DNA from: Caulobacteraceae bacterium
Lineage (GTDB): Bacteria > Pseudomonadota > Alphaproteobacteria > Caulobacterales > Caulobacteraceae
Length of the DNA: 37,842 nt
Reading direction: 5' to 3'
NCBI GenBank assembly: GCA_049519835.1
Contig: JBEKQJ010000003.1
Coordinates: 1-37,842 of the forward strand
The position numbers and the translations under genes were made by a program. The notes beneath the pieces are model-generated. The model searched no databases and was not told where the DNA came from. It saw only the letters and a program-made list of their open reading frames with translations. This document shows, in pieces, positions 7,124 through 37,842 of the stretch; the stretch's first letter is position 1; every line of letters starts with the position of its first letter.

Positions 7124-7222
7124 CTGACAGCCTGATCCCGACATGCCCCGTTCGGGGCATGCGCCGCCTTCGCTTCCCATGCCAGCGTCCGCTAGCGGCG
7201 CGTGACGAGCTGGGAGCGGCGG

Positions 7223-15815: not shown

Positions 15816-16305
15816 GTTCGGCTCCAGCCAGCGCAGCGTTTTCGGCGCGAATCCGGATGGCCAGCACAGCGGCGTTGGCCAGCGAGAATACCAGGGCGAC
15901 GATCGGCGCCCCTAGCGCCAGGGGCAGGCAGGCGATCTCGCCGACGACCACCAGGTAGTTGGGATGACGCAAGAAGCGATAGGGCCCGCTGGTCACCAGG
16001 GGCGCTCCGGGAAGGATGATGATGCGGGTCGTCCACCGCCGCCCGAGGGTCGCCAGGGTCCAGACCCGCAGGCCCTGCAGCAGCAGGAAGATCGCCAGCC
16101 AGCCCCATTGCAGGGGATGGTCCCTGGCCAGCCACCATAGGGCGACCAGCCAGCTGGCGTGGAGCAGGACGATGACCGGATAGTGCGCGGCGGCGACCTC
16201 ATAGGCGCCGGCCGCCAGCAGGGCGGCGGTGTTGCGTTGCGCGAGCCAGAGCTCGGCGAGACGTTCGGCCGCGACCAGGAGGAGGAGCGCCTCGGCCACC
16301 GTCAT
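15799..16305 (-). CDS. isoprenylcysteine carboxyl methyltransferase family protein (SrsB/BpsB-like polyketide O-methyltransferase)
   Basis: ERLAELWLAQRNT, HYPVIVLLH, LGRRWTTRII, GPYRFLRHPNYLVVVGE and RIRAEN motifs; directly downstream of a type III PKS. Confidence 0.9.
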   Translation of the reverse strand: MTVAEALLLLVAAERLAELWLAQRNTAALLAAGAYEVAAAHYPVIVLLHASWLVALWWLARDHPLQWGWLAIFLLLQGLRVWTLATLGRRWTTRIIILPGAPLVTSGPYRFLRHPNYLVVVGEIACLPLALGAPIVALVFSLANAAVLAIRIRAENAALAGAELAARG

Positions 16306-16315
16306 GCGGCGCCCC

Positions 16316-17365
16316 TCATGCGGCCTGCGACAGCGCCACGCTGCTGGCGGTGAAGCCAGGACCCATGGCCGTCAGCAGCGTCCGGCCCGGCAGACCGGTC
16401 GCCATGGCGCGCTCGAGGACGAAGAGGGCGGTCGGCGCTGACATGTTACCGAACTGCGCCAGCACCTCGCGTTCGACGTTGAGAGCCCCCTGACCGAGGT
16501 CGAAGGCGTCCTCGAGGGCCTCGATCACCTTGGCGCCGCCCGGATGGAAGACGAAGCGGTCGACATCGCCCAAGGTAAGGCCGCCGCGGCTGAGAATACC
16601 GCTGACGGCGGGGGCCATGCTCTCGCGGGCGAAAGGGGGGATGGCGCGATCGAAGATGACCCCGAAGCCGGGCGCATCGACGGTCCAGCCCATGATTTCC
16701 AGGGTGTCCGGCCAGGTGTGCTGGCCGCTCATTTCAATGGCCAGTTCGCCGGCGTCGTCCGCCTTTACGACGCAAGCGGCCGCGCCATCGCCGAACAGGG
16801 CGGTGGCGACGATATTGGCCTTGGTCAGTTCATCGTGGCGGAAGGCCAGCGTGCAGAGCTCGACCGTCACCATCAGAACCACGCTGCCAGGCCGCGCCTG
16901 CGCCAGGCGGCCGGCCAGGGCGAGACCGGACACGCCGCCGGCGCAGCCGAGACCGAAGACCGGCACTCGCTCGACGTCGGCGCGAAAACCGAGGCGGCCG
17001 GCGGCGCGGGCTTCCAGGCTGGGCGTGGCGATGCCGGTGGAGGAGACCGTGACGATCGTATCCACGTCGCTGGCGCGCAGGCCCGCCCCCTCGAGCGCCT
17101 TGCCGGCGGCGTCAATGAACAGCTCGACGGCCCCCTCGAGATAGGCTGCCATGCGTTCAGGCCAGCCGAGCGGCGTGAAATACCAGTCGATCGGGCGGAC
17201 CGCGAACCGCCGGGAGATGCCCGAGCTTTCGAAGACACGGGCCATCCGGTCGAAATCGCCGAAGCGCCCCGCGAACAGGCTGCGCGCCGCGATGGCGATG
17301 TCGCCCTGCGCGAAGCAATGCGGCGGCGTCGCCGTGGCGACAGACAACAATTTCGGGGGCCGCAT
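16316..17365 (-). CDS. type III polyketide synthase (SrsA/BpsA-like alkylresorcinol/alkylpyrone synthase)
   Basis: Catalytic triad GLGCAGG / HPGG / GNMS, plus STGIATPSL, VELCTL, ALFGDGAAA and AMGPGF. Confidence 0.95.
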   Translation of the reverse strand: MRPPKLLSVATATPPHCFAQGDIAIAARSLFAGRFGDFDRMARVFESSGISRRFAVRPIDWYFTPLGWPERMAAYLEGAVELFIDAAGKALEGAGLRASDVDTIVTVSSTGIATPSLEARAAGRLGFRADVERVPVFGLGCAGGVSGLALAGRLAQARPGSVVLMVTVELCTLAFRHDELTKANIVATALFGDGAAACVVKADDAGELAIEMSGQHTWPDTLEIMGWTVDAPGFGVIFDRAIPPFARESMAPAVSGILSRGGLTLGDVDRFVFHPGGAKVIEALEDAFDLGQGALNVEREVLAQFGNMSAPTALFVLERAMATGLPGRTLLTAMGPGFTASSVALSQAA

Positions 17366-23591: not shown

Positions 23592-24692
23592 TTAAGTTCT
23601 TGAAAGAGCCCGCGACACGGCGCCGCTGCTCAGGGTCGGTTGTTGACGGGACATCCCGGCTAGGGGTCGGGAGGTGGCAGGGAGCCGCAGCCGGCGGGCG
23701 CGATCGGCCATGTATTCGACGCGGGCCTGGGCGAGCCGGCCGATCGAGCCCACCAGCAGGCCCACGCCAAGGATCGCGCCGCCGATCGCCCGGCCCGCAT
23801 CGCGGACCGGTTCGCTGCCGGCTTCTGGCTCTTGAAGCCAGGTGTTCAGGACGGCGCCGGAGACGATCAGCGCGCCGCCGAGATAGCCGCCGATGGTCAG
23901 GGTTTCGCCGAGGCCCAGGTGGGCGATGAGCGCGCCCCAGACGGGTTCCAGCACGTAGAGGAAGGCGACGGTGACGGGGTTGATGTAGCGTTGGAAGAAG
24001 ATCGAAATCGCGGTCGGCAGGAACGTCGTCGCCAGGCCCGCGTAGACGATCCATGGCCAGACACTGCCGAAGCCGGCCGCAGTCAGCCCGCGCGCATGCC
24101 CGGAGACGCCGGTGGCGACCGCCGAGAGCACGGCCATGGTGACCACTTCGGTTGCGAACATCGGCAATAGGGAGCGCTGGTCGCCTGAGCTGAGCTTGTC
24201 AGCGCAGAAGATGTAGATCGTGTAGATAACGGCCGCGGCGAGACCGATGCCGTCGCCCAGCAGATGGCCGCCACCCTTGGTGACCTGCGAGATGAGCAGC
24301 ATGGCGCCGAGCACGGACAGCAGGCCGGCGCTCCAGGTCACCCAGCCCACCGGCCGGCGGAAGATCAGCCAGGCGATGAGCGCGGCGACGAAGCCGTTGA
24401 TGGCCGGATAGAAGGCGGTATCCGTCGCCGTAGTGTAGGCGAGCGCCCAGGTGCTGGTCAGGACGCCAGCGTAAAGCACCATCCCGAGCACGACGCCGCG
24501 CCGAACGACCTGGAAGTTCAGTCGCCGCCAGGTGGCCGCGAGAATGACCAAGGCTGGAACGGCCGCGACGGCGAGTTCCGCAGTAGAAAAAACGAAGGGA
24601 TCAGCAAATCCTAGAGAGAATTTGCCGGCCGCATAGAACGACCCCCAAAGTATCGGGTTGAGACTAAACAAGAGAACGGAGAGGGTTTTCAT
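23592..24692 (-). CDS. DMT/EamA family transporter
   Basis: About 10 hydrophobic segments in two repeats; ILWGS.Y, GDGIGL.AA..Y, Y.GLATT and LEPVWGALIA...LGETL. ATGA overlap with the upstream gene. Confidence 0.9.
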   Translation of the reverse strand: MKTLSVLLFSLNPILWGSFYAAGKFSLGFADPFVFSTAELAVAAVPALVILAATWRRLNFQVVRRGVVLGMVLYAGVLTSTWALAYTTATDTAFYPAINGFVAALIAWLIFRRPVGWVTWSAGLLSVLGAMLLISQVTKGGGHLLGDGIGLAAAVIYTIYIFCADKLSSGDQRSLLPMFATEVVTMAVLSAVATGVSGHARGLTAAGFGSVWPWIVYAGLATTFLPTAISIFFQRYINPVTVAFLYVLEPVWGALIAHLGLGETLTIGGYLGGALIVSGAVLNTWLQEPEAGSEPVRDAGRAIGGAILGVGLLVGSIGRLAQARVEYMADRARRLRLPATSRPLAGMSRQQPTLSSGAVSRALSRT

Positions 24693-25594
24693 GACAGGGT
24701 CCCTGCGGATGAAACCTTGGAAAGTGAAAGTCTTTCGCCACGATCAAAATACGATGCCCATGCGTTGATCACTGCGTTGGCATAGATAATAGGCATGTTG
24801 TGAATGTATCTTTCCTTCTTGGTCTCGGCGAAGGCCGGGTCTTTATGGAAAGCAACCCAATTTCGTTTGTCTTCGGTCAGATGCACGGGACATCGAGACG
24901 TATTGGTTATGGCTGCGTAGTTCTTGATGGTTTTCTCAGCCATGCGCTGCCACGGGTCGGCGCAACGCGCGAGAATGCTCTTGGCCTCGGCCTTGTCCTC
25001 GATTTCGTGGGGGGCCTTGCCGGCGTGGAGCTCGGACGTGTCCCTGGCGAACATCGCGAAAGCGAAGATGTCCGATGTAATATTCACGCATAGATATGGC
25101 GCCGCCATCAGCGGGTCGTAGAGCGGATCGGACTCGTCGTCGGACTGCGGACAGAAGGCGATCGCGTCGAAGTCGTCATACTCGGTCGGTGTGCCGGTGA
25201 CCGGGCAGGTGAGGGTCAGGCGCTTGTTCAGCGCGCCGCCGTTGAGCAGCGTGGTCGCCGGCACATCGCTGAGGATCGCCATCCGCTCTGAAAGATAGAT
25301 CATGGCGTCTTCGACGCTGGCCGGCCCGCTCTTGTAGAAACGCGGCTCGTTGAAGACGAACAGGCAGCCGACGCTCAGCCGCCTCGACAGACGACAGGCG
25401 AATTCGGAGAACAGATCTAGAATGTCGTCGTCGTCATCGACAACGCGAATGAGATAGCGGCCTTTCTGAAACTCACGACGCCCAGCAATGCAACGCAAAC
25501 CAGAGCCTAGCCACTGAGTCATTTCCTCCAGCACCGTCGCGTCCGGAAGCTTGGGCGCAAGGGCTGTGGAAGCGCTCGTGGAACAAAACTGCAT
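24689..25594 (-). CDS. hypothetical protein, possibly a divergent YqcI/YcgG-family (DcsA/GntA-like) heme enzyme
   Basis: ATG 25594 with AGGGGA RBS; 301 aa, soluble, translationally coupled to EamA. The CDS itself is solid. The family call rests on by-eye similarity of LRCIAGRREFQKGRYLIRVV..D and FDAIAFCP...PYLCVN to FPCVGAK..L..G.L.I.V..D and FFVVGLHP...PALVFN. Confidence 0.6.
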   Translation of the reverse strand: MQFCSTSASTALAPKLPDATVLEEMTQWLGSGLRCIAGRREFQKGRYLIRVVDDDDDILDLFSEFACRLSRRLSVGCLFVFNEPRFYKSGPASVEDAMIYLSERMAILSDVPATTLLNGGALNKRLTLTCPVTGTPTEYDDFDAIAFCPQSDDESDPLYDPLMAAPYLCVNITSDIFAFAMFARDTSELHAGKAPHEIEDKAEAKSILARCADPWQRMAEKTIKNYAAITNTSRCPVHLTEDKRNWVAFHKDPAFAETKKERYIHNMPIIYANAVINAWASYFDRGERLSLSKVSSAGTLS

Positions 25595-25622
25595 GACGAG
25601 ATTCCCCTGTGGATTCGCGACG

Positions 25623-25640
25623 ATGCGTGACGCACGCATA
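25623..25640. promoter_or_regulatory. palindromic operator box 1 (candidate MarR site)
   Basis: ATGCGTG-acg-CACGCAT, a perfect 7-3-7 inverted repeat about 30 nt upstream of ATG 25594. Confidence 0.65.
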
Positions 25641-25764
25641 TTAACTATTCAAATTGCAAGCAAATTACAAACGCGAAGGGGAGCTACATACTGACACAAC
25701 TGCACTCTAATGAGCTCGCATTTCGTACGTTCCCATTGGCCATGGCCCCCAATTGTAAATCAAG

Positions 25765-25783
25765 TACGCATGCGTCACGCATA
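25765..25783. promoter_or_regulatory. palindromic operator box 2 (inverted near-copy of box 1)
   Basis: Contains ATGCGT-c-ACGCAT (25770-25782). Its reverse complement ATGCGTGACGCATGCGTA matches box 1 ATGCGTGACGCACGCATA at 16 of 18 positions. Confidence 0.65.
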
Positions 25784-25804
25784 CGTGTCAAGAAAGATAC
25801 GGGC

Positions 25805-26332
25805 CTATGCACGTTGAAATCCCCCCAGTGGTTCGACCGGGCAACGGTCGTAGGGACACACGTCTTCGTCACAGAGGCGGCAGACGTGATCCGACTCATG
25901 GCGAGAGGCGACCAGGCGCGGCATGACCTTCTCGGCGATGCGGGTGAGGACCTCCCATTCATCGGCGGCAAGGTCTTCCAGGGCGCCGTCCAGCAACGAC
26001 CGGCGAGTGAGTAGAATATCGTACATCGCCGCCCGACCAGCGGGAGTCAGAGCCAGTCTGACGACCCGACCGTCAGCGCCGCGGGCCTTCTGGATCAGGC
26101 CATCACTCTCCAGGCGCTCGGCGATGCGCACGGCGGCGGAATGAGACAGGTTGAGTGTTGTCGCCAATCTGTCGATAGACTCATTCGGATTGGCGCCGAT
26201 CTGGACGATCGCGGCCGGCGCGCCGGCGATGTAACCGGACTTCGACTCGATCGTGTCCCGCAGCTTGTCTGCGACCGCCAGGGCGAGCGCCCCGAACAGA
26301 TTGGACGTACGGAGGCGTTCGGGATTTTCCAT
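25805..26332 (-). CDS. MarR-family transcriptional regulator with C-terminal 4-Cys motif
   Basis: Winged HTH LATTLNLSHSAAVRIAERLESDGLI.K...DGRVVRLALTPAGR; tail CRLCDEDVCPYDRCP. Start taken as ATG 26332 (the track gives TTG 26368). Confidence 0.9.
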   Translation of the reverse strand: MENPERLRTSNLFGALALAVADKLRDTIESKSGYIAGAPAAIVQIGANPNESIDRLATTLNLSHSAAVRIAERLESDGLIQKARGADGRVVRLALTPAGRAAMYDILLTRRSLLDGALEDLAADEWEVLTRIAEKVMPRLVASRHESDHVCRLCDEDVCPYDRCPVEPLGGFQRA

Positions 26333-26437
26333 CCGTGAGGATATATCTCCCACTGTTACATATATCAAGCAATCGTTAAGACCAGATCTGAAGCGTTGCT
26401 TTAGCGACGCCCGCAGAGAGGTCGCTCGGCGACAGGC

Positions 26438-27988
26438 TCAGGACTGGACGGTCGGCGCCGGGGCTGAATCGCGCCGCGCCTTTGGCCGCTTGGCAGGCGA
26501 GGCTTCGGAAGCGGCAGTGGCTGCCGGCTTCCTGACTGGCGGCGTGGCGGCGGGCGGCTCGGCCGCCGCGGCGGCGATCGGCGGCAGTTCGGCGATCTCG
26601 CGCAGGGTCGCCACGCCGCGCTTGATGAGTTCGTGCGCCTCATCCTGCGAGAGGACGCGGCGGCAGGCGGTGACGCCGATCTCCAGGCGTCCGGCATAGC
26701 TCTGAACGGTGAGGTTCACCGCCGCGCCGTGGTACGGGATCGACACCGGGATGTAGTGCGCCATCCGGGCGCCGGCGACATAGAGCGGCGTTGGCGGGCC
26801 GGGCACGTTCGAGATTACCACGTTGCCCATCGGCGGCAGCTGCCCGGCCAGATTGGATCGGCCGGCGAAACTGGCCATGCCGCTCAGCAGCCACGGCGCA
26901 CCCATCACCGGCACGTCGACGCCGAGGACCGGCTTCAACTCGCGGACCATGGCCTTGCCGGCCTCCGACGAGGCGTGAATGATCCGCAGCCGTTCGGCGA
27001 GGTCCTTGATGTCAGTCGCCAGGTCGACGCGGATCATGGTGACTTGATTGTTGGGGGAGTCGTCGTCGGCTGCGCGCAGGCTGACGGGCACCAAGGCGAT
27101 GATCGAGGCGGCAGGAAGTTGGCCGCGCTCGGCGAGAAAACCGCGCACGGCCCCGCTGCACATGGCCATGACGATGGTGTTGATCGTGCCGCCGACGCGC
27201 TTGCCGAGCGCCTTCACCTCGTCCATCGGCAGGGACAGGGTGGCGTAGGTGCGCTGGTTGGTGATCGGGACGTTGAAGATCGTCCGGGGCGCCGCGCCGA
27301 GCGGCAGGGGCCGTCCGCCGGGCGGGTTGTAGTTGCTGGCGAAGGCGCGCGCCCCGCCGCTGAGCGCCTTGGCGGCGTCCGGCAACAGATTGCCGAGCTT
27401 GCGGTACTGCATGGCGGAATTCTCGATCGCCGCGCGCAGAAGCTCGTTGACGCCCAACTGATAGGCGCCGCCCGCGCGCCGCCGGGTCGGCGGCGGGACG
27501 TCGCGAATCTCGGGGCTGGAGTCGTAGAGCACCTTGGCCAGCTCGGCCCCGGACTTGCCGTCCACCCCGCTGTGGTGGAACTTGGTGTAGAGTCCCACCT
27601 GACCGTTCGCGACCCCCTCGATGATATAGATTTCCCAGAGCGGCCGACTGCGATCGAGCAGGCTGGAGTGCAGCCGGGCGACCAGCTGTTCGACCTGGGC
27701 CATGGAGCCGGGCTTGCGGACGTTGAGGCTGCGGACGTGATAGTCGAGGTCGATGTCGTCGTCCTCTATCCACACCGGCTCCGCCAGCTCGAAGGGCATC
27801 GTCGCCAGCTTGCGAGTCATGGCGCGCGAGAGGTGGATGCGCTTGCCGATCATCGCCTTGAAGTCGTCGTAGAAGTCGCCGTCGTAGCCCTCCGGCAAGT
27901 CGATCAGCATCAGGCTGCCGACGTGCATCGGCGTCTCCGGCGTTTCGAGGTGCAGAAACGACGCGTCGAGGCCGCTCAGATGTTCCAT
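26438..27988 (-). CDS. wax ester synthase/diacylglycerol acyltransferase (WS/DGAT)
   Basis: LSGLDASFLHLETPETPMHVG, LDRSRPLWE, catalytic HHSGVDG, VPVSLR and NVVISNVPGP. ATG 27988 after GGAGGAG. Confidence 0.95.
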   Translation of the reverse strand: MEHLSGLDASFLHLETPETPMHVGSLMLIDLPEGYDGDFYDDFKAMIGKRIHLSRAMTRKLATMPFELAEPVWIEDDDIDLDYHVRSLNVRKPGSMAQVEQLVARLHSSLLDRSRPLWEIYIIEGVANGQVGLYTKFHHSGVDGKSGAELAKVLYDSSPEIRDVPPPTRRRAGGAYQLGVNELLRAAIENSAMQYRKLGNLLPDAAKALSGGARAFASNYNPPGGRPLPLGAAPRTIFNVPITNQRTYATLSLPMDEVKALGKRVGGTINTIVMAMCSGAVRGFLAERGQLPAASIIALVPVSLRAADDDSPNNQVTMIRVDLATDIKDLAERLRIIHASSEAGKAMVRELKPVLGVDVPVMGAPWLLSGMASFAGRSNLAGQLPPMGNVVISNVPGPPTPLYVAGARMAHYIPVSIPYHGAAVNLTVQSYAGRLEIGVTACRRVLSQDEAHELIKRGVATLREIAELPPIAAAAAEPPAATPPVRKPAATAASEASPAKRPKARRDSAPAPTVQS

Positions 27989-28023
27989 GATGATCTCTCC
28001 TCCTGAAGCCGCGCCGCAGCCGG

Positions 28024-28458
28024 CTAGACCTTCGGCTGCAGCAGCTTCTGCAGCTCGGCCATGTTCTGCTGCATGCGGTCCTGCACCACCTTCCAAGCGT
28101 CGGCGCGGGCCTTGGCTTCCAGCTCTGTCAGTTCGCGGAAGTTGGCCATCGCCTTCTCGACGCCCTGCCGCGCCATCTCGCCCCCCTTGGAGAGAGCGTC
28201 AGGGCTGGTGGCGTCCTTGAGGGCGGCCTGCCATTGGGCCACAGCCTCGGCGAGGATCTCATTGCGCCGCTCGAAGGAGGCGCGGGCGCCGTCGGTCAGC
28301 ACCTTGCCGGCCTCGGTCACCGCCTCGAGATCCTTACGCTGCCACTCGGCGACCGCTGAGAGATCGACCCCGGGGAGAGGGTATTTCGAGGCAAGTTCCT
28401 GAAGGCTGTCGAACCAGGAGGCTGCGGCCGCGTCGGCGGATTTCTTGCTTTCGGCCAT
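28024..28458 (-). CDS. phasin family protein
   Basis: LPGVDLSAVAEWQRKDLEAVTEAGK...G......RRNEIL...KAMANFRELTE...AWKVVQDRM matches the phasin pattern. ATG 28458 after GAGGGAG. Confidence 0.8.
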   Translation of the reverse strand: MAESKKSADAAAASWFDSLQELASKYPLPGVDLSAVAEWQRKDLEAVTEAGKVLTDGARASFERRNEILAEAVAQWQAALKDATSPDALSKGGEMARQGVEKAMANFRELTELEAKARADAWKVVQDRMQQNMAELQKLLQPKV

Positions 28459-28508
28459 TGGATCTCTCCCTCGTCGTTGCGCCCCGCGGGGGCTGTCGTT
28501 GCGAATTC

Positions 28509-29312
28509 CTAGGCCGCTGGCGCCCAGGCGAACCAGGCCGCGTCCTCGCCACGATCGGGGTCCGGATAGAGGCAGGTCGGCTGGCTCTGACGATCGAACG
28601 GCCGCCATTCGCCTTCGGGCAGTGCGAGCCGGTCGGCGATCGCGTGCAGCACGGCCGGATTGTGCCCGAGGCCACAGTGGCTGCCCTCGACCTCGATGTT
28701 CTCCGACGCAGCGCCGGCCTGCTCGCGGCAGCCCTGCCAGGCGACGACGCCGTCGGTGCGCGAATAGATCGCCGTGCTCGGCACGGGAGGCGGGGTCTTC
28801 ATGCGGACCCGCTCAGGCCAATCGTCTGCGGTCCGGCCGCTCAAACCCTCGTACAGCCGCCAGGCGTTCGACGCCCTGGGCTCGCTGGCGAAGGGGCTGC
28901 CGAGTGTGATGACTTGGCGCACGTGTTCAGGGCGCCGGCGCGCCAGTTCGCGGGCGTAGACGCCACCGAGGCTCCAGCCGATCAGGCTGACCTTGCGCCC
29001 GTGGCGATGGAAGAGTTCGTCCAGCCGCTGTTCGACGCGCGCCTCGACGCCGGAGCGCGGGCCGCGGTTGGGGCCGAGCTTCCAGCCGTGAGCGGCGTAG
29101 CCGAGATCCCGCAGCAAGCCGCGCAGCGGACGCGTCGACAGGTCGCTGGCGGCGAGGCCGGGGATGACGAGGACCGGGTGGCCGTCGCCCGGCGGCGCGC
29201 GCAACAGCAACGGGTAGGCCGCGAAGAAGGCGCCGAGCTCAAGGAAGCCGCGCGCCTCCAGCGCCAGCAACAGCAGAGAGGGCGGCTTCATGGCCTCAGC
29301 CGTCGAACCCAT
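28509..29312 (-). CDS. alpha/beta hydrolase (lipase/esterase-like)
   Basis: GDGHPVLVIPG, nucleophile elbow GWSLGG, ITLGSP, YSRTDGVV and SHCGLG (Ser-Asp-His triad). Confidence 0.9.
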   Translation of the reverse strand: MGSTAEAMKPPSLLLLALEARGFLELGAFFAAYPLLLRAPPGDGHPVLVIPGLAASDLSTRPLRGLLRDLGYAAHGWKLGPNRGPRSGVEARVEQRLDELFHRHGRKVSLIGWSLGGVYARELARRRPEHVRQVITLGSPFASEPRASNAWRLYEGLSGRTADDWPERVRMKTPPPVPSTAIYSRTDGVVAWQGCREQAGAASENIEVEGSHCGLGHNPAVLHAIADRLALPEGEWRPFDRQSQPTCLYPDPDRGEDAAWFAWAPAA

Positions 29313-29520
29313 CGCGCCGCGCCTCCCTCACCATCGCCGCGGATTTTCCGCGTTCGCCAAGCCGTACGGTCCCGGATCGACTACAAAGAGCCGGAGTATC
29401 CGTCGCGTCAACCAAAAGCCGCCCCAGGACCGCCAGGGCTTGACGGCGCGCCCACCGCCCGCGACGGTCAGTTCCAAGGAGCGGCCCGCCCAGAGCGCCG
29501 CCGCGAGAGTGAGACGCCAG

Positions 29521-29889
29521 ATGACCCAGTCCGCGGACTTCGTGGAATTGTGGCGCGAGGCGCTGCAGAAATGGGAGCGCCAGACCAACGAGGCGCTCAC
29601 CGCCGCTTCGGCCGACGAAAACGTCAGCCGGGTGATGAATCAGTCGATGGCCGCCATAGCCAGGCTGCAGGCCAAGCAGGGCGAGGCGATCGAACGTGAA
29701 CTGATCCGCTACAACCTGCCCAGCCGTGCCGATTTCCGAGAACTAGCGGCCCGCCTGGAGGGGATCGAGGCTCAGCTTGGCGAAATTCGCGACCTGCTGC
29801 GCGGCGCCGTCGCACCCACGGAGGCTTCGCCCGCGCCGCCCAAACCAGCCCGCACGCGCAAGCCGCCCCAGCCGGACAGCGCCGGATGA
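29521..29889 (+). CDS. short PhaE/PhaR(Bacillus)-like PHA synthase partner subunit
   Basis: 122-aa helical protein with NLPSRADFRELAARLEGIE, like the C-terminal NLP(T/S)R motif of PhaE. ATGA overlap with phaC. Confidence 0.65.
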   Translation: MTQSADFVELWREALQKWERQTNEALTAASADENVSRVMNQSMAAIARLQAKQGEAIERELIRYNLPSRADFRELAARLEGIEAQLGEIRDLLRGAVAPTEASPAPPKPARTRKPPQPDSAG

Positions 29890-30962
29890 GCGAGGCGACC
29901 GCGGCGCCCGATGTGGTTGCGCGGCTGCAGGCCGAGATCCAGCGCGCGCAGGCTCGCAACATCAAAGGCTGGAACTATCTGGTCTCGGCCGGACCGCAGC
30001 GCGGCGTCACACCCAAGGATGTGGTGCTGAACCGGGGCACGCTCAGCCTCTACCACTACCGTGCGCAGGTTTCCGAAGTCTATCGAACGCCGGTCCTGTT
30101 CGTGATGGCGACGACCAACCGCGCCTTCATTTTCGACCTTGCGCCGGGCCAGAGCTTCGTCGAATTCCTGCTGCAGCGCGGCTACGACGTCTACGTCATC
30201 GACTGGAATCCGCCGCGCGAGGATGAGAAGCGGCTGGGATTCGAAGACTACATCCTGGATTTCATCCCGGCCTGTGTCGCCGAGGTTCAGGCGCGCTCGG
30301 GCGAAGACCAGGTGAGCGTGGTCGGCTACTGCATGGGCGGGGTGCTGGCGCTGATGTACGCCGCCCTGCACGGTGAGGGGCAGGTGCGCAATCTCACCTG
30401 CTTCACCACGCCGTTCAACTGGAGCAACTTCGGCCTTTTCAACCGCTGGGCCGATCCGCGTCACTTTGACGTCGACACCATCCTCGACACTTTCGGCAAC
30501 ATGCCGGCGGATCTGATTTCGGCCAGCTTCGATATGCTGCGACCGGTAAGCAAGGCGGTCAGCCAGGTGCAATTATGGGACAACATGTGGAACGACGAGT
30601 TCGTGAAGTCCTACCGCGCGTTCGACCGCTGGGGCGCCGAAACCCTGCCGTTGGCGGGTGAGTACTTCCGCCAGACGGTCAAGGAGCTGATGTTCGGCAA
30701 CAAACTCTACACCGGTGAACTGGAGATCGGCGGCCGCCGGGTCGACGTCGGCGCCATCACCGCCTCATTCCTGCATGTCGTCGCCGAACATGACCACATC
30801 GTACCGATCGAGGCGTCGCGCGAGCTGGTCGAGCGGGTTGGCTCGGCCGACAAGGAACAGATCGTTCTCAAGGGAGGGCATGTGAGCCTCATCGCAGGAC
30901 CGAACGCCGTGCGCCGGCTGTGGCCGCGCCTCGACGCCTGGCTCGCTCCGAGGTCGGCGTGA
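29886..30962 (+). CDS. phaC: class III/IV-like polyhydroxyalkanoate synthase catalytic subunit
   Basis: 358 aa; GVTPKDVV, PVLFV...NRAFIFDLAPGQSFVEFL..RGYDVY.IDW, Cys lipase box GYCMGG, AEHDHIVP (Asp) and GGHVSL (His). Confidence 0.85.
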   Translation: MSEATAAPDVVARLQAEIQRAQARNIKGWNYLVSAGPQRGVTPKDVVLNRGTLSLYHYRAQVSEVYRTPVLFVMATTNRAFIFDLAPGQSFVEFLLQRGYDVYVIDWNPPREDEKRLGFEDYILDFIPACVAEVQARSGEDQVSVVGYCMGGVLALMYAALHGEGQVRNLTCFTTPFNWSNFGLFNRWADPRHFDVDTILDTFGNMPADLISASFDMLRPVSKAVSQVQLWDNMWNDEFVKSYRAFDRWGAETLPLAGEYFRQTVKELMFGNKLYTGELEIGGRRVDVGAITASFLHVVAEHDHIVPIEASRELVERVGSADKEQIVLKGGHVSLIAGPNAVRRLWPRLDAWLAPRSA

Positions 30963-31546
30963 GCGCCGCCCGCCCCCTGCCGCGCGAGGTGGACTGCGCC
31001 GGCCATGCGGTGACCTTTCGCCTGATGACGCCGGCCGACGGTCCGGCGGTCCTCGCCTTCGCGCGCCGCCTGCCTGCGCACGACCTGCTCTTCCTGCGCC
31101 GCGACATCTCCCATCCGAAGGTGATCGGAGCCTGGATCCGCGACCTCGACAGCGGGCAGCTGATCACGCTTCTGGCCTGGCGCGATGAAATCGTCGTGGG
31201 TTGCGCCACCATTGTGCGCGATCCGCTGTCCTGGTCGGCTCACGTGGCCGAGCTGCGCATCGTGATATCCGAGGAGATGCGCGGCCGGGGCCTCGGCAGC
31301 CTGTTGGCGCAGGAGGCCTTCGCCTATGCGCTAACCGAGGGGGCCGAGAAGCTGTTTGCCCAGATGACGGCCGACCAGCAGGGCGCCATCGCGCTCTTCG
31401 AGGGCTTGGGCTTCGCGCCTGAGGCCATCCTGCGTGATCACGTGCGCGGTCGCGACGGTGTGAAACACGATCTGGTGGTGCTCAGCCACGACGTGGCCCG
31501 CGTCAGCGCCCGCCATGAAGCTTACGGACTGAACGAGGCATTATAA
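30959..31546 (+). CDS. GNAT family N-acetyltransferase
   Basis: GTGA overlap with phaC; acetyl-CoA motif A ISEEMRGRGLGSLL and AIALFEGLGF. Confidence 0.9.
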   Translation: MSAARPLPREVDCAGHAVTFRLMTPADGPAVLAFARRLPAHDLLFLRRDISHPKVIGAWIRDLDSGQLITLLAWRDEIVVGCATIVRDPLSWSAHVAELRIVISEEMRGRGLGSLLAQEAFAYALTEGAEKLFAQMTADQQGAIALFEGLGFAPEAILRDHVRGRDGVKHDLVVLSHDVARVSARHEAYGLNEAL

Positions 31547-31565
31547 GGCGAGAGAGGATCCGGAT

Positions 31566-32024
31566 ATGGCTACAAGAAGCGGCGCCGAAGGCCTGACCAG
31601 GGGATTGAAGAATGCGGGCGAGCGTCTGCGCACCGCCGGCGAGCGCCTGGCCGAGAACAACCGCGCCATCAACCTGCGCCTGATCGAGCAGGCGGAGGAG
31701 AACACCCGCGAGGCGTTCAAGGCGCTGCGCGCCGCCGCCCAGGCCTCGACACTGAAGGACGTCGCCTCGATCCGGGCCCAGTATGTGCGCGATCAGGGCA
31801 AGCGGCAGGTAAGCCACATGCGCGAGGTCGGCGAGTTGATCTCCCGGTTCGGCCGCGAGGCGCTGACGCCGGCAAAGGCTCCGGCCGCCGCGAAGTCCGC
31901 GCCAGCCGCCGCCAAGGCCGCGCCGGCCGCAGCTAAGGCCGCGCCGGCCCCCAAAACTCGCAAACGCACGGCCGCAGCCAAGACGCCGCGCGCACCGAAG
32001 GCTGCGGCGAAGCCCGAGGGTTAG
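31566..32024 (+). CDS. phasin-like protein with Ala/Lys/Pro-rich histone-like tail (PhaF-like architecture)
   Basis: N-terminal amphipathic helices (LRLIEQAEENTREAF.AL..AAQA..LKDV..I...YVRDQ), then PAKAPAAAKSAPAAAKAAP...KTRKRTAAAK. Confidence 0.7.
   Translation: MATRSGAEGLTRGLKNAGERLRTAGERLAENNRAINLRLIEQAEENTREAFKALRAAAQASTLKDVASIRAQYVRDQGKRQVSHMREVGELISRFGREALTPAKAPAAAKSAPAAAKAAPAAAKAAPAPKTRKRTAAAKTPRAPKAAAKPEG
31881..31949 (+). repeat. 21-bp coding tandem repeat (PAAAK[S/A]A x3)
   Basis: CCGGCCGCCGCGAAGTCCGCG / CCAGCCGCCGCCAAGGCCGCG / CCGGCCGCAGCTAAGGCCGCG / CCGGCC. Confidence 0.8.
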
Positions 32025-32812
32025 TTCAGCGCGGGCGGCGGCGGGTAGAAGCCCGCCAACAGAGCCGGCGCTGCGAACGGCTTCCAGTCGTCATCCGCTT
32101 GCGCCAGCCGGTCGGCGACGGCGTAGAGCACGGCTGCATTGACGCCGAGTCCGCAGTGGCTGCCGCGCACCTCGATGTTCTCGGCTCGGGGATGGGGCGG
32201 CTCGACGCAGTTGCGCCATGGCACGACACCGTCGTCGCGGCTGAAGATCGCAGCTGCCGGCACTGGCAGAGGCTCGACGCTCTCGCGCAGCCGTTGCGCT
32301 ATGGCGGCGCCGGACAGCGTCTCGCCTGAAAGGCGCTCGTAGAGCCGGGCCGGCGCCGTCGCCAGCGGGTTGCCGGTGAACGGCGATCCGAGCGTGATCA
32401 CCTTGCTGACCATTTCGGGCGCCGCGCGGGCGAGGTCGCGGGCCAGGATGCCGCCGAGGCTCCAGCCGACCAAGCCGACCTTCTGGCCGGTATCGCGGTG
32501 AATGGTCTGCAATCGCTCCAGGAGCCGCTCGCCCCGCCAGCCGACCGATCGCGGCCCGAGGTTGCGGCCGAGTTCCCAGGCCCGAGCGTCATAGCCAATC
32601 ACAGACAGGTATCGCCGCAGGAGAACGGTCGAGCGGTCACTGGTGATGAATCCCGGCATGACCAGCACTGGAGCGCCGTCGCCCCGTGGCGCGAGCGCCA
32701 GCGCCGGCGCGGCCAGAGGCAACGCCGCCAGCTCGAGGCCGGCGCGCTGCAGCTCGGTCAGGGTCAGCAGCGCCGAAGGCGCCTTGATCTCCCTCACATC
32801 GCTCAATGGCAT
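32021..32812 (-). CDS. alpha/beta hydrolase, paralog of 28509-29312
   Basis: GDGAPVLVMPG, GWSLGG, ITLGSP, FSRDDGVV and SHCGLG. Start ATG 32812 after GGAGAG. Its stop overlaps the convergent phasin-like stop. Confidence 0.9.
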   Translation of the reverse strand: MPLSDVREIKAPSALLTLTELQRAGLELAALPLAAPALALAPRGDGAPVLVMPGFITSDRSTVLLRRYLSVIGYDARAWELGRNLGPRSVGWRGERLLERLQTIHRDTGQKVGLVGWSLGGILARDLARAAPEMVSKVITLGSPFTGNPLATAPARLYERLSGETLSGAAIAQRLRESVEPLPVPAAAIFSRDDGVVPWRNCVEPPHPRAENIEVRGSHCGLGVNAAVLYAVADRLAQADDDWKPFAAPALLAGFYPPPPALN

Positions 32813-32885
32813 TCGACCGGTCTCTCCGATTCTCAATCTGTAAAGCTGGTGCTTGAGAGACGTGACGTCAACATGGTGGGTTGTC

Positions 32886-33902
32886 TCAGGGCGGACCACA
32901 GGCGCAACGGTCAGCCAGGTCACGCAGTTCCGGCATCGCCAAGGCGCCGACGGAGCCGTCGAGATCGAGCAGCGCCTTGCGCGCCTTGTCGCGATCGCCG
33001 GCCGCGACCAGCGCCGTCGCCTGGGCGAGACGAACCTGAACCTCACGGTCGACCCGCGTCCGGCAGGCGGCGAGGCGAGACGCATCCGGCGCTCCTGGCC
33101 GGGTGAGAAGCTCCAAGGCCTGGCCGAGCGCCCGCGCGTCGGCGATCTGGTGTCCGGCGCCCGGTGTGGTCCGCGAGGCGCCGCCGAACACGCACCAGCG
33201 GCTGAGCGAGGCCAGGCTGGCGACGTCGGCGGCCACGGCGGCAGTGTCCTCGGCCCCGCTGACGTAGGCAATGCGGCTGCGGGTCTGGACCAGCTCGAAA
33301 AGCGGTCGCGCCGGCAACACGGCCGGGGCGACGGCGATGGGGTCGCTGCCGGCGTCGAGGAAGGCGCCACGGAGGAGGTCCGGATAGGCGAGCGCCAGTT
33401 GCAGCGCCACGCGCGAACCACCGGAGAAGCCGCCAACGAACACCCTCTCCGCGTCGATCGCGTAGCGCTGCTGGACGTTCCAGGCAGCCTCGAGGGCGAG
33501 GGGCGCGCGCCGGCCGATGACGTTCTGGTCATTGCCCGAGCGCTGGGCGGCGACGAAGATCAGGCCATAGCGGTCGAGAATAGAGGCCCAGCCTGGCGGC
33601 AGCTTCGCCTCGTCGGAGGGGGAGATGAAGACCAGCAGGCCGTAGCCCTTTGGCGGACCCTTGGCCGGCACGTAGAGCGTGAACCGCTCCTGGGCGAGGT
33701 CAAGAGGCTGCTCGGCCAGGGTGCGGCCGTTGGCGGCGAGACCTCGCCGCCCCGCTTCCGCCGCCAGCGGGCTCAGCAGACGGTCGACCAGGGCGGCGTT
33801 GGTCGCCAGCGGCGAATAGAGACTGAAGGTCTCGTCCTGGGCGGCAACGGTCGGACCCGCGGCCAGCAGAATCGCCAAAGCCAGAATGTAGGCGCCCTTC
33901 AT
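32886..33902 (-). CDS. exported alpha/beta hydrolase (PHB depolymerase/esterase-like)
   Basis: Signal peptide MKGAYILALAILLAAGPTVAA-Q; FTLYVP...YGLLVFI; IDAERVFVGGFSGGS (GxSxG); GAEDT and GAGH. Confidence 0.75.
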   Translation of the reverse strand: MKGAYILALAILLAAGPTVAAQDETFSLYSPLATNAALVDRLLSPLAAEAGRRGLAANGRTLAEQPLDLAQERFTLYVPAKGPPKGYGLLVFISPSDEAKLPPGWASILDRYGLIFVAAQRSGNDQNVIGRRAPLALEAAWNVQQRYAIDAERVFVGGFSGGSRVALQLALAYPDLLRGAFLDAGSDPIAVAPAVLPARPLFELVQTRSRIAYVSGAEDTAAVAADVASLASLSRWCVFGGASRTTPGAGHQIADARALGQALELLTRPGAPDASRLAACRTRVDREVQVRLAQATALVAAGDRDKARKALLDLDGSVGALAMPELRDLADRCACGPP

Positions 33903-33998
33903 CGGCACGGCTCCGGACCCTAAAGATCGCCGGTTAGAGTTAGACTGACAGCGGGCTTCGGCGCCATTGTGCCGTGGCTAACCAGCGAGGAGAACGCC

Positions 33999-34433
33999 AT
34001 GCCCGTCGACGCCAAATACAGAACCACCGCTACCGCCAGCGGCGGCGGCCGCTCTGGCCGCACGGAATTGGCCGACGGCACGCTGGGTTTCCAGCTGGTC
34101 GTCCCCAAGGAGCTGGGCGGTCCGGGCGGAGACGGGGCCAATCCCGAAAAGCTGTTCGCCCTCGGCTATTCAGCCTGTTTCCTGGGCGCGATGCGCGTCG
34201 CCGCCACCCAGACCGGGATCAAGGTTCCGGACGGAACGACGGTGACCGCCACGGTCGGCATCGGACCGCGCTCGGAGGGCGGCTTCGGCATCACCGCCGC
34301 GCTCGACGTGCTGCTGCCCGGCGTGCCCGAGGCGGACGCCCATCGGCTGATGGAGACGACACACGGCATCTGCCCTTATTCCAATGCGCTCAGAGGCAAC
34401 GTCGAGGTGCCGACCACCACGCGCGCGTCATGA
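33999..34433 (+). CDS. ohr: organic hydroperoxide resistance protein
   Basis: GGRSG, PKELGGPG, NPEKLFALGYSACF and CPYSNA. ATG after GAGGAG. Confidence 0.95.
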   Translation: MPVDAKYRTTATASGGGRSGRTELADGTLGFQLVVPKELGGPGGDGANPEKLFALGYSACFLGAMRVAATQTGIKVPDGTTVTATVGIGPRSEGGFGITAALDVLLPGVPEADAHRLMETTHGICPYSNALRGNVEVPTTTRAS

Positions 34434-35076: not shown

Positions 35077-37212
35077 ATGAGGGGGCCTGGGCGGGCGGTA
35101 GGCTGTGCGGCGCTGGCGCTGGCGGTGTGCGCCCTGTGGACGCGGCCGGCCGCGGCGAGCGGCGACTTCACCTGCATGCGGTCGTGGAAGGTGGCGCAGG
35201 CCAGCTTCTCCGGTTGTGACGACATGGCGGTGATGGGGCCCGGCAACGACACCCGGGTGAACCTAGTTCTGCTGATGGCCGACTTGCGCGGCACGGGCGG
35301 CAAGCCTCTGCCTCCGGCCGACGGCAAGAGCGAAGACCCGCTCTTCGATTGGGCAAGCCTCAATGCGCGGCTCTATCCCAAGCCCGCCGCCCCCGATGAT
35401 GGCGACTTCGCCTCTGGAGAGGGCTCGCGGTGCCTCAGCAACGCCGGCGGCGCGACCGACTTCGAGGCTGCGGTCAAGGCGGCGCGCGGACTGACCGATG
35501 CAGAGCGGACGGCGCTGCTGGCGGCGCGCAAGGCGCTGCCGGCCGACTGCACGTCGAACCCGTCTCAGCCGGTCACCGCCGACGTCCACTCGGTGGCCGC
35601 CAAGGCCTTTGTCACTTACCTGCAGGGCGCGGAGGCGTTCTACGGCGGGAACTTCGATGCCGCCGCCGAGGCTTTTGCCGCCCTCGCCAAGGCCGACGAC
35701 CCATGGCTGCGTGAGACCGCCCGCTACATGCAGGCGCGGGTCCAGCTGAATCGGCTCCAGGTGGGCCTTTTCGACGACTATGGCGCCCTCTCCAAGCGGG
35801 CCCCGGCCGACCAGGTGATGGCGGCCAAGGCCGACTTCGACGCCTATCTTCGCGCCTATCCCAAGGGTCGATACGCCGCATCGGCGCGCGGCCTAGAGCG
35901 GCGGCTCTATTGGCTGGGCGGCATGAACGGCAAGCTGGCCGCCGAGTACGCGGCCATGGCGGCGGTCGACCCCGCCGCGCGCGGCCTCGCCGACCCCGAC
36001 CTCGCCCAGGAGATTGACAACAAGCTGCTGGATGCCCTCAAGCCGGCGGACATCGCCGACCCGACCCTGCTCGCGGTGATCGACCTCAAGCTCATGCGGG
36101 CCGCCGATTCCGGATCGGGCGACGCCGGCGACCAATCTCTGGCGCTGAGCGACCTGGAGGCCCAGCGGGCGTCATTCGCCGGACGCCAACCGTTGTTCGA
36201 CTACCTGCTCGCCGCCCACGCCATCTACGTCGACCACCGCCCGGACGAGGCGCTGCGGCTGATCCCGGACGAGGCGGGGCAGACGTCGTTCACCAATCTA
36301 CAGTTCAGCCGCCAGATGGTGCGCGGCCTGGCGTTGGAGGCGACCAAGGACCCCGGCGCAATGGCGTTCTGGACGCGTATGCTGCCCGGCGCGGCGGGGC
36401 CCTATCAGCGCCCGGCCGTGGAGCTGGCGATCGCCATGCACTTCGAGCGCGCCGCGCAGCTCGACAAGGTGTTCGCCGCCGGCTCGCCGGTGCGCAGCGA
36501 GACCATGAGAACGATCCTGCTGGCCAATGCCGCTGGGCCCGGCCTGTTGCGGGCGCGGGCGACGGCGACGGACGCCGATCCGCACGAGCGTCGGGCGGCG
36601 CTCTTCGCTCTTCTTTACAAGGAGGTGACGCGCAGTCGGTACGCCGACTTCCTGAAGGACGCAGAGCTGATTCCGGCCGATGAGCGGGCCGCCCCAGGTC
36701 CCCAGAGCGGCGCCGAGCCGGACCCCTATCGCTTCTACCCCAGCGAAAACGACGTAAGCGGCGATGGACCGCTGTGGCTGTTCTCGGGTGGCGGCAAGCT
36801 CGGCGAATACAGCTGTCCGCCGCTCAAGGAGACGGCCGCCCGCCTGGCTCGCCAGAGCGGCGACTCAACTGCGAAGCTGTGCCTGGCGGAGTTCGTGCGC
36901 GCCAACGAACTCGATGGTTTCTTCCTCGACACGCCGCCTGCGAAGGACGAGCTGGGCGGCGCGCCCTCACAGTTTCCGGGACCTGCCTACGCACGCCTGG
37001 AGATCTACAAGCAGCTCATCGCCGATCCCAAGACGGGGGCTGCCGACAAGGCCTACACGCTCTATCGCGCCGTGCGCTGCTACGCGCCGAGCGGCAACAA
37101 TCACTGCGGCGGGGAGGATGTCGGTCAGCCGATGCGCAAGGCCTGGTTCGAGCGCCTCAAGCATGACTATCCATCATCGCCTTGGGCCAAGGAGCTCAAG
37201 TACTATTGGTGA
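35077..37212 (+). CDS. secreted helical-repeat (TPR-like) protein, partner of a DUF3142 protein
   Basis: Signal peptide ending AAA-S; helical repeats (YLQGAEAFYGGNFDAA, YLRAYPKGRYAASARGL); Cys pairs; C-terminal YRAVRCYAPSGNNHCGG...WFERLKHDYP.S.WA..LKYYW. Confidence 0.8.
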   Translation: MRGPGRAVGCAALALAVCALWTRPAAASGDFTCMRSWKVAQASFSGCDDMAVMGPGNDTRVNLVLLMADLRGTGGKPLPPADGKSEDPLFDWASLNARLYPKPAAPDDGDFASGEGSRCLSNAGGATDFEAAVKAARGLTDAERTALLAARKALPADCTSNPSQPVTADVHSVAAKAFVTYLQGAEAFYGGNFDAAAEAFAALAKADDPWLRETARYMQARVQLNRLQVGLFDDYGALSKRAPADQVMAAKADFDAYLRAYPKGRYAASARGLERRLYWLGGMNGKLAAEYAAMAAVDPAARGLADPDLAQEIDNKLLDALKPADIADPTLLAVIDLKLMRAADSGSGDAGDQSLALSDLEAQRASFAGRQPLFDYLLAAHAIYVDHRPDEALRLIPDEAGQTSFTNLQFSRQMVRGLALEATKDPGAMAFWTRMLPGAAGPYQRPAVELAIAMHFERAAQLDKVFAAGSPVRSETMRTILLANAAGPGLLRARATATDADPHERRAALFALLYKEVTRSRYADFLKDAELIPADERAAPGPQSGAEPDPYRFYPSENDVSGDGPLWLFSGGGKLGEYSCPPLKETAARLARQSGDSTAKLCLAEFVRANELDGFFLDTPPAKDELGGAPSQFPGPAYARLEIYKQLIADPKTGAADKAYTLYRAVRCYAPSGNNHCGGEDVGQPMRKAWFERLKHDYPSSPWAKELKYYW

Positions 37213-37842
37213 CCGCCTGACGATCGTCGCCCTGCTGCTGGCGCTGGCCGCCGGCGCAGCGCGCGCCGAGACCGTCGAGGCGAACCGCTACGACTCCTTC
37301 TGGCTGTGGGCCGGGGTCGCGCCCCAGCCCGCCCTCGCCCGCGCTCGGCGGGTCTACCTACTGGAGGGGGAGGTGAAGGTTGGCGACCCCGCGCGGCTCG
37401 TCGCCCAACGCCCGGCCACACCGCATGTTCGAGGCGTCAAGGTGTGGATGGTGGTGCGGGTCCAGACCCTCGACTGGCCGCCATCCGTATACCGACAGGT
37501 CCAAGCGGCGCTGGGGCGTTGGCGGGCGGCCGGGAACGACATCGCCGGTGTGCAGATCGACTTCGACGCCCGCACTCAGCGTCTCGCCGACTACGCCCAC
37601 TTTCTCGCAGGCCTGAAGCAGGCCCTGCCGGCCGGCTGCCAGCTCGGGATCACCGGCCTGCTCGACTGGAGCAGCCACGGCGACCCGGCCGGCCTCGCCG
37701 CGCTGGCTGGCGTGGTCGACGAGATCGTCCTGCAGATCTACCAGGGTCGGCATGTCATCCCGGGCTACGCCGGTTATCTCGCCCACCTCGACAACCTGAA
37801 GATCCCCTTCCGCGTCGGCCTGCTCGAGGGCGGCGACTGGAC
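37163..37842 (+). CDS. DUF3142 domain protein (partial, runs off the right edge; start uncertain)
   Basis: Not in the ORF track. Frame reads ...RLTIVALLLALAAGAARAETVEANRYDSFWLWAGV...GVQIDFDARTQRLADYAHFLAGLKQALPAGCQLGITGLLDW...VDEIVLQIYQGR. The only in-frame ATG upstream of the signal peptide is at 37163. Confidence 0.8.
   Translation, partial: MTIHHRLGPRSSSTIGDRLTIVALLLALAAGAARAETVEANRYDSFWLWAGVAPQPALARARRVYLLEGEVKVGDPARLVAQRPATPHVRGVKVWMVVRVQTLDWPPSVYRQVQAALGRWRAAGNDIAGVQIDFDARTQRLADYAHFLAGLKQALPAGCQLGITGLLDWSSHGDPAGLAALAGVVDEIVLQIYQGRHVIPGYAGYLAHLDNLKIPFRVGLLEGGDW

Follow-up and report, generated by a model that had tools for sequence, protein, structure and literature searches.

Short polyhydroxyalkanoate (PHA) synthases that are accompanied by a separate subunit have been described in two classes. 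In Priestia (Bacillus) megaterium, the class IV synthase is encoded in the order phaP-phaQ-phaR-phaB-phaC, with a PhaC of ~360 aa carrying a GYCMGG box and a PhaR subunit of 199 aa; PMC12455824 covers class IV through Bacillus and Priestia examples only. Class IV enzymes consist of a PhaC of ~40 kDa and an adjacent PhaR of ~20 kDa on which activity depends. Class III PhaEC synthases from gammaproteobacteria, rhizobia and haloarchaea also pair a short PhaC with a separate subunit. Neutral-lipid synthases of the WS/DGAT (wax ester synthase/diacylglycerol acyltransferase) family, which we take to be the AtfA/Tgs-type enzymes, share an HHxxxDG motif. Here, a nine-gene cluster (26438-33902) is described in a 37,842-nt stretch of DNA from a Caulobacteraceae bacterium (contig JBEKQJ010000003.1; hereafter the window), in which a WS/DGAT gene lies beside a class IV-like PHA synthase unit. 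The region comprised two cassettes and an additional esterase gene that is probably a bystander. We consider it probable (roughly 0.6) that the two cassettes are co-located and make separate storage esters.

The PhaC of this cluster belonged to a branch that was surveyed in 80 loci, which were the best 80 of 162 pattern hits and included near kin, and counts over them are not independent of kinship. The branch resembled the Priestia locus in the length of PhaC, the GYCMGG box, a sister position in the tree and a PhaR-homologous subunit, and its Chloroflexota members also had a PhaQ-like repressor, with the phaP slot taken by a small gene on the reverse strand. However, branch PhaCs were 37-38% identical to class IV enzymes, the subunit was shorter (117-177 aa, median 126), phaB was missing between phaR and phaC, a gene for a GNAT acetyltransferase was coupled behind phaC, the neighbours included WS/DGAT, lipase-like hydrolase and CYP102-like genes, and all carriers lay outside Bacillota. 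The class III model TIGR01836 gave the best hidden Markov model match, yet the window PhaC remained below its cut-off, the branch shared a mean identity of 33% with class III enzymes and fell outside their clade, and the GNAT was found in 0 of 44 class III genomes. The window WS/DGAT matched the known family (423.6 bits on TIGR02946 against a cut-off of 310), with the motif intact as HHSGVDG, whereas its neighbourhood of proteobacterial-type phasins and a PHA synthase unit was unlike that of described members. A further similarity was found with blr2879-blr2887 of Bradyrhizobium diazoefficiens USDA110 (including phaC4/phbC1, blr2885, and phaP5, blr2887), whose order and lengths fit branch locus L118; in the published accounts and tables, however, phaC4 appears as a solitary, weak paralog and blr2880 as 'hypothetical', and the window cluster has neither the P450 nor the epoxide hydrolase gene.

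No description of the PhaR-PhaC-GNAT branch or of its link to WS/DGAT was found in the literature searched, in which subscription journals were mostly outside the coverage; PMC11948995 mentions neither phaC nor phasins, and the supplements of PMC6515984 gave no match. New here are the measured, loose link to WS/DGAT and the assignment of a counterpart cluster in USDA110, whose subunit gene is probably missing from the annotation. Class IV is known from Bacillus relatives, and the branch would add a conserved sister group that spans at least four phyla and has an acetyltransferase as its near-obligate partner. It represents a new synthase for bioplastic work, perhaps with acetylation control of PHA synthesis, and it maps onto the tractable strain USDA110 (blr2879-2887) and the cultured plasmid pNL2 of N. 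aromaticivorans.

Gene Content and Integrity of the Cluster

All nine open reading frames (ORFs) were intact, and their order and strand were checked by ORF calling and family searches, which agreed with the nine contiguous genes in a divergent and convergent layout reported by the first-pass annotation of this sequence. A single 9,832-nt contig from an independent peat run bridged 24375-34202 with 45 substitutions and 4 gaps relative to the window; thus, the cluster was not an assembly chimera. The window stretch was present in twenty peat DNA runs, and its nearest named relatives were Phenylobacterium metagenome-assembled genomes (MAGs; PhaC identity 82-84%). The GC content at third codon positions in the cluster (0.81-0.90) was equal to that of the neighbouring genes, so there was no compositional sign of recent transfer.

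The first cassette was on the reverse strand. Its WS/DGAT gene (26438-27988; 516 aa, HHSGVDG at 138) was the sole copy found in the genome and likely starts at 27988, with an AGGAGG site ahead of it. Next to it were a phasin gene (28024-28458; 144 aa; Phasin_2, with TIGR01841 above cut-off) and the gene of a lipase-like, PGAP1-like alpha/beta hydrolase (28509-29291; 260 aa) with GWSLGG, DGVV and SHCGL motifs. The second cassette ran forward and comprised a short PhaR-like synthase subunit (29521-29889; 122 aa), PhaC (29886-30962; 358 aa; Cys149/Asp303/His332), the GNAT acetyltransferase (30959-31546; 195 aa) and a phasin (31566-32024; 152 aa; Phasin_2) with a tail rich in Ala, Lys and Pro; the subunit gene overlapped the phaC start by 4 nt, and the GNAT gene overlapped the phaC stop by 4 nt. 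Both phasins scored above the Phasin_2 cut-off, in agreement with the earlier assignment of a phasin to one arm and a phasin-like protein to the other. A second PGAP1-like hydrolase gene (32021-32812, reverse strand; 263 aa) was convergent with the latter phasin gene, and its product was ~50% identical to the first hydrolase. It was followed by the gene of a probably exported esterase (32886-33902, reverse strand; 338 aa) with a signal-peptide-like start. The first-pass annotation had recognized this convergent pair, although in the wrong order, since the hydrolase precedes the esterase. A relative of the esterase was seen in 0 of the 80 related loci, and it therefore probably stands outside the system.

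A promoter and terminator scan gave 0 and 4 sites, respectively, which was the chance level. In the one RNA run compared, matches to the window were limited to pieces of 18-21 nt. The Bradyrhizobium PhaR-box core TGCRNYGCA, a consensus of Bradyrhizobium, had 3 matches in the window against 5.4 expected, none of them in the cluster.

Class of PhaC and Its Small Subunit

The window PhaC did not belong to class I or II, whose chains are ~60 kDa: it had 358 aa and scored 149 against a cut-off of 623 bits and 71 against 855 bits. Nor was it a class III enzyme, with 315 bits on TIGR01836 against a cut-off of 365 and a place outside the class III clade. In a quick tree of 72 rows with class I as the outgroup, the 45 branch members formed one clade (quick-tree support 100) that joined Priestia/Bacillus class IV (99), and a careful tree of 32 rows split the branch plus class IV from class III plus haloarchaeal PhaC (100/99); both trees were subsets of 130 PhaC, with only two clear class IV rows. 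The phylogeny against the known classes, which had been suggested as a check, thus placed the branch as a distinct, long-branched sister clade of Bacillus class IV. Identity within the branch was at least 50% across phyla. The catalytic triad of C149 (in GYCMGG), D303 and H332 was invariant in 88 of 88 branch members, and the top Foldseek matches of the predicted structure were PhaC structures (TM 0.71-0.81). The loop VYAL(V/I)N was altered to VMATTN or VMSLVS in the branch; this loop may line the oxyanion hole. A term search of PMC12184317 on this point gave no match.

The small subunit was closer to PhaR than to PhaE. A profile of 78 branch subunits reached 79 bits against residues 3-101 of Priestia PhaR, compared with 19-45 bits against ten PhaE, so the earlier label of mini-PhaE was abandoned. 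On the PhaE model TIGR01834, the window subunit scored 27.6 against a cut-off of 155 bits and aligned to model positions 229-316 only, which does not correspond to a full-length PhaE. The subunit of one Chloroflexota member reached 72.8 on TIGR02132 against a cut-off of 148.4. In addition, a PhaQ-like repressor was located upstream of the PhaC unit in 23 of the 80 loci, mostly in Chloroflexota. Because of the tree placement, the PhaR-like subunit and the upstream PhaQ-like repressor, the PhaC-PhaR pair is classified, by sequence, as a class IV-like PHA synthase with a shortened PhaR and not as class III. Of the earlier label "class III/IV-like", the class IV kinship was retained and the class III part was not. 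The unit is not filed as class IV proper, because the subunit was below the PhaR cut-off.

The phaP slot of Chloroflexota loci held a 159-aa protein (L067:6404-6880, reverse strand, and 22 other loci). It had no Pfam or NCBIfam match and no BLAST match to Priestia PhaP, and is a candidate new phasin family.

Acetyltransferase Partner

The GNAT gene was found directly after phaC in 79 of the 80 loci, and 65 of 81 junctions had a 4-nt overlap, although the junction starts were picked nearest to the stop, which favours short gaps. When 401 Pseudomonadota genomes were searched with a profile of this GNAT, there were 10 matches, each directly behind a branch PhaC. The GNAT is thus a near-obligate partner of the branch PhaC, a role not singled out in the first-pass annotation. 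Its model displayed the standard GNAT fold (pLDDT 92.9), and R108, G111 and G113 were invariant in 79 rows. Similarity to known lysine acetyltransferases was weak (9it0, E 4e-5; mycobacterial Pat, 20.9 vs. 460 bits), and matches to small-molecule GNATs were stronger.

Four long matches were considered as possible PhaC-GNAT fusions. The two carrying both domains had out-of-frame middles; they were therefore regarded as frameshift artefacts and not counted. Four Chloroflexota loci (L051, L059, L078, and L080) contained a second GNAT paralog, 37-43% identical, that adjoined WS/DGAT.

Linkage of WS/DGAT and PhaC

WS/DGAT was located within 8 kb of the branch PhaC in 34 of the 80 loci and in 22 of the 49 with full flanks, and the pairing spanned Alpha- and Betaproteobacteria, Woeseiaceae, Chloroflexota and Vulcanimicrobiota. 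The synteny survey thus bore out the proposal that the linkage is conserved. Both genes had a low background: WS/DGAT occurred in 29 of 400 Alphaproteobacteria and in 1 of 150 genomes of the same family, and the branch PhaC in 1 of 400 and 0 of 150, respectively. The sole PhaC-positive alphaproteobacterium of that sample also carried a WS/DGAT 5.6 kb away. This low background indicated that the linkage is real.

The linkage was far above chance yet loose. No WS/DGAT was found inside 8 kb in 27 of the 49 full-flank PhaC loci, and 28 of the 29 WS/DGAT-bearing Alphaproteobacteria had no branch PhaC. Linked WS/DGATs fell in several lineages, with 6 label changes on a 63-row tree (FastTree only), at least 4 of them forced, and gene layouts around the two genes varied between loci. 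Nine genomes carried the PhaC unit with no WS/DGAT close by, and in two of them no WS/DGAT was seen at all (MAGs G910 and G905, one of them from the closest relative, a MAG of uncertain completeness). Together, these observations did not support the dedicated hybrid locus of the first-pass annotation. They fit two cassettes, one fixed (PhaR-PhaC-GNAT) and one mobile (WS/DGAT-hydrolase-phasin), each of which also occurs alone. A PGAP1-like hydrolase accompanied WS/DGAT in 11 of 19 loci lacking the branch PhaC (hand-picked from WS/DGAT genome scans), so WS/DGAT plus hydrolase forms a cassette of its own. For its part, the PhaC unit stood without WS/DGAT in the 27 full-flank loci above and on pNL2 of N. 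aromaticivorans, where a phaE-annotated subunit, PhaC, GNAT and hydrolase are encoded and the plasmid carries no WS/DGAT.

Among the remaining neighbours, a CYP102-like P450-reductase fusion was found in 23 of the 80 loci (18 of the 49 full-flank ones) and an acyl-CoA ligase in 11 of 80 (8 of 49); the loci with the P450-reductase were Xanthobacteraceae-like or belonged to Sphingomonadales, Parvularculaceae and Woeseiaceae. These genes allow a second explanation, in which PhaR-PhaC-GNAT would be a three-component synthase of a new functional type: PhaC would oligomerize longer hydroxy fatty acyl-CoAs, which would come either from beta-oxidation or from the P450 together with epoxide hydrolase and acyl-CoA ligase, and the free hydroxyl end would be acylated by WS/DGAT or GNAT, giving estolide-like, acyl-capped oligoesters. 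This broadens the capped product proposed in the first-pass annotation. The P450-reductase and ligase neighbours, the 34 linked loci, the missing phaB, the altered loop and a Met in place of a conserved Tyr (Met74) are consistent with this. In addition, WS/DGAT was co-directional with the PhaC unit in the same gene run in L005 and L019/L020/L022; five Chloroflexota carriers had no class I PhaC or clear PhaB; and neither an FcrA-type nor a clear fatty-acyl-CoA reductase that would supply fatty alcohols was found in the window organism's genome (91% complete). On the other hand, there was no co-evolving WS/DGAT lineage, G910 and G905 showed no WS/DGAT, the window organism's genome had no P450-reductase fusion at E<=1e-20, the WS/DGAT-P450 and phaC-GNAT genes of USDA110 are split by a reverse-strand gene, and class IV synthases are, according to PMC6403647, of the short-chain-length type. 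We regard the coupled pathway as unlikely. If true, the capped oligoester would stand midway between PHA and wax ester as a storage lipid, linking two storage pathways treated as separate, and would have escaped notice in Bradyrhizobium for want of an annotated small subunit gene.

In L005 (7594-11575, forward strand), subunit, phaC, GNAT, WS/DGAT and phasin formed one run with overlapping stops and starts, and the WS/DGAT-GNAT stop overlap was 1 nt. This locus is the best natural test case for coupling of PhaC and WS/DGAT.

Probable Counterpart in Bradyrhizobium diazoefficiens USDA110

Loci L118-L121 and Xanthobacteraceae/Hyphomicrobiales MAGs encoded, in order, WS/DGAT, epoxide hydrolase, P450-reductase, a reverse hydrolase, subunit, PhaC, GNAT and phasin. 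In USDA110, blr2880 (1551 nt; WS/DGAT), blr2882 (3237), blr2885 (1083) and blr2887 (456) had the same lengths as in L118 (PMC6201568 supplement 4); blr2881 is an epoxide hydrolase (PMC6321122), blr2882 a P450-reductase (PMC10888616 supplement) and blr2885 one of two short PhaC paralogs (PMC4029623). The GNAT counterpart, blr2886, ends 590 nt after phaC. From gene order and lengths, not from sequence, we infer that blr2879-blr2887 is the counterpart cluster. No gene is listed in PMC6201568 supplement 4 for the 547-nt gap between bll2884 and blr2885 (3178336-3178884), where the matching loci encode a PhaR-like subunit of 381-384 nt (L118:8791-9174). The subunit gene was probably missed in the annotation of this gap.

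The published expression data bear on another explanation, in which the PhaC unit would be a passenger, cryptic or in decay, that lies beside WS/DGAT incidentally. Its scattered occurrence (none of 150 genomes of the family and 1 of 400 of the class) and the doubts raised about phaC4 in USDA110 (PMC10888616) would be in agreement with that. However, blr2885 and blr2886 were transcribed at 33 and 34 reads per kilobase per million (RPKM), compared with 178 for phaC1 (PMC6201568; blr2880 56, blr2882 54), and the invariant triad, the identity across phyla, the 4-nt phaC/GNAT overlap and the recurrence of the linkage with different WS/DGAT lineages are not what would be expected of a passenger. This explanation is thus highly improbable.

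The phasin gene blr2887 (phaP5) is a direct target of the polyhydroxybutyrate (PHB) repressor, also named PhaR, and was 129-fold up in the mutant; among the cluster genes, it was the only one with a strong response to loss of the repressor (PMC6201568). Blr2882 was in the PHB granule table with a low score (PMC10888616).

Monomer Supply and Proposed Function

No phaA, phaB or phaJ was detected among the window ORFs scanned, in agreement with the first-pass annotation. One PhaB-like short-chain dehydrogenase/reductase (SDR) in the window reached 166 against a cut-off of 302, and four neighbouring SDRs from relatives were tested as PhaB, none of which qualified. The genome holds phaB and phaR on contig C90, three MaoC genes, a class I phaC in two contig-end pieces and a gene for a PhaZ-like protein. 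The missing monomer-supply genes in the window are therefore no puzzle by themselves.

If the two cassettes make separate storage esters, PhaR-PhaC would polymerize hydroxyacyl-CoA into PHA as a class IV-like two-subunit synthase, with monomers from PhaB or MaoC/PhaJ encoded elsewhere, and would stand in this genome alongside the ordinary class I PhaC, as a second synthase. WS/DGAT would make wax esters or triacylglycerol, the hydrolases would mobilize the stored esters, and the phasins would coat the bodies. The two units may share inclusions, and a common dependence on the fatty-acyl-CoA pool and on phasins as coats would account for their clustering. The GNAT would most likely be an acetyl-CoA-dependent regulator that acetylates lysines on the synthase or on an acyl-CoA ligase; this is the weakest step, held tentatively at somewhat under even odds. 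The acyl-CoA ligase, P450, epoxide hydrolase and glutathione peroxidase neighbours suggest use during fatty acid growth or detoxification, which would explain the weak expression in published studies. The mapping onto USDA110, with its missing subunit, makes the puzzle of the weakly expressed phaC4 testable on fatty-acid media.

Several points weigh against separate storage esters. In USDA110, phaC4 has been regarded as weakly expressed or a possible pseudogene, no PHB synthase other than PhaC1 is taken to be active, and PHB granules carried PhaP1-3 and not PhaP5 (PMC10888616). No branch member with a measured product was found in the literature searched. Met74 occupies, in 86 of 88 branch members, a position where classes III and IV conserve Tyr. 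The phaA, phaB and phaJ families were not recurrent among the neighbours, while the CYP102-like P450-reductase was. The sequence and fold matches of the GNAT were all generic and did not pin its substrate. Moreover, 7 of the 9 genomes with an unlinked PhaC unit held a WS/DGAT elsewhere, compared with 29 of 400 Alphaproteobacteria.

Of the accessory neighbours, the hydrolase occurred most often (in 37 of the 49 loci with full flanks), and this would also suit a PhaC that acts mainly as a transacylase or turnover enzyme, with alcoholysis releasing short PHA oligomers, the hydrolases recycling them and bulk PHB coming from class I PhaC. Within class IV, alcoholytic cleavage of PHB is known for the PhaRC of B. 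cereus YB-4 (PMC8878867), and PhaC1 is credited with the bulk PHB of USDA110 (PMC10888616). However, a PhaR subunit of its own and a PhaQ-like repressor suit a synthase, and none of the five Chloroflexota carriers tested had a class I PhaC, or a PhaB above cut-off, so there would be no class I polymer to turn over, though each has a second short PhaC-like gene. Turnover as the main role is therefore improbable.

The second PhaC-like genes in the five Chloroflexota genomes stood alone (e.g., L151:5544-6587 and L154:4952-6070, both reverse strand); in these two, GYCMGVP replaced GYCMGG and a FPYLGISRPY loop was present. The best PhaB match in the two Chloroflexota carriers inspected adjoined a gene that we take to be acyl-carrier-protein-like.

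Other Genes in the Window

Directly downstream of WS/DGAT, a region of lower GC content (58-66%; 23592-26368, reverse strand) encoded a MarR protein, an EamA transporter and a 316-aa protein without a family match; a 4-nt insertion at 25684 was present in two runs. At the other end, 35077-37842 (forward strand) held the gene of a protein of 711 aa, which had a signal-peptide-like start but matched no Pfam family, followed by a DUF3142 gene. A 468-aa ORF bearing a Hint_2 domain was located at 7202-8608 (forward strand). A type III polyketide synthase gene followed by an ICMT-family methyltransferase gene occupied 15799-17365 (reverse strand), a pair that is presumably of the alkylresorcinol/pyrone type.

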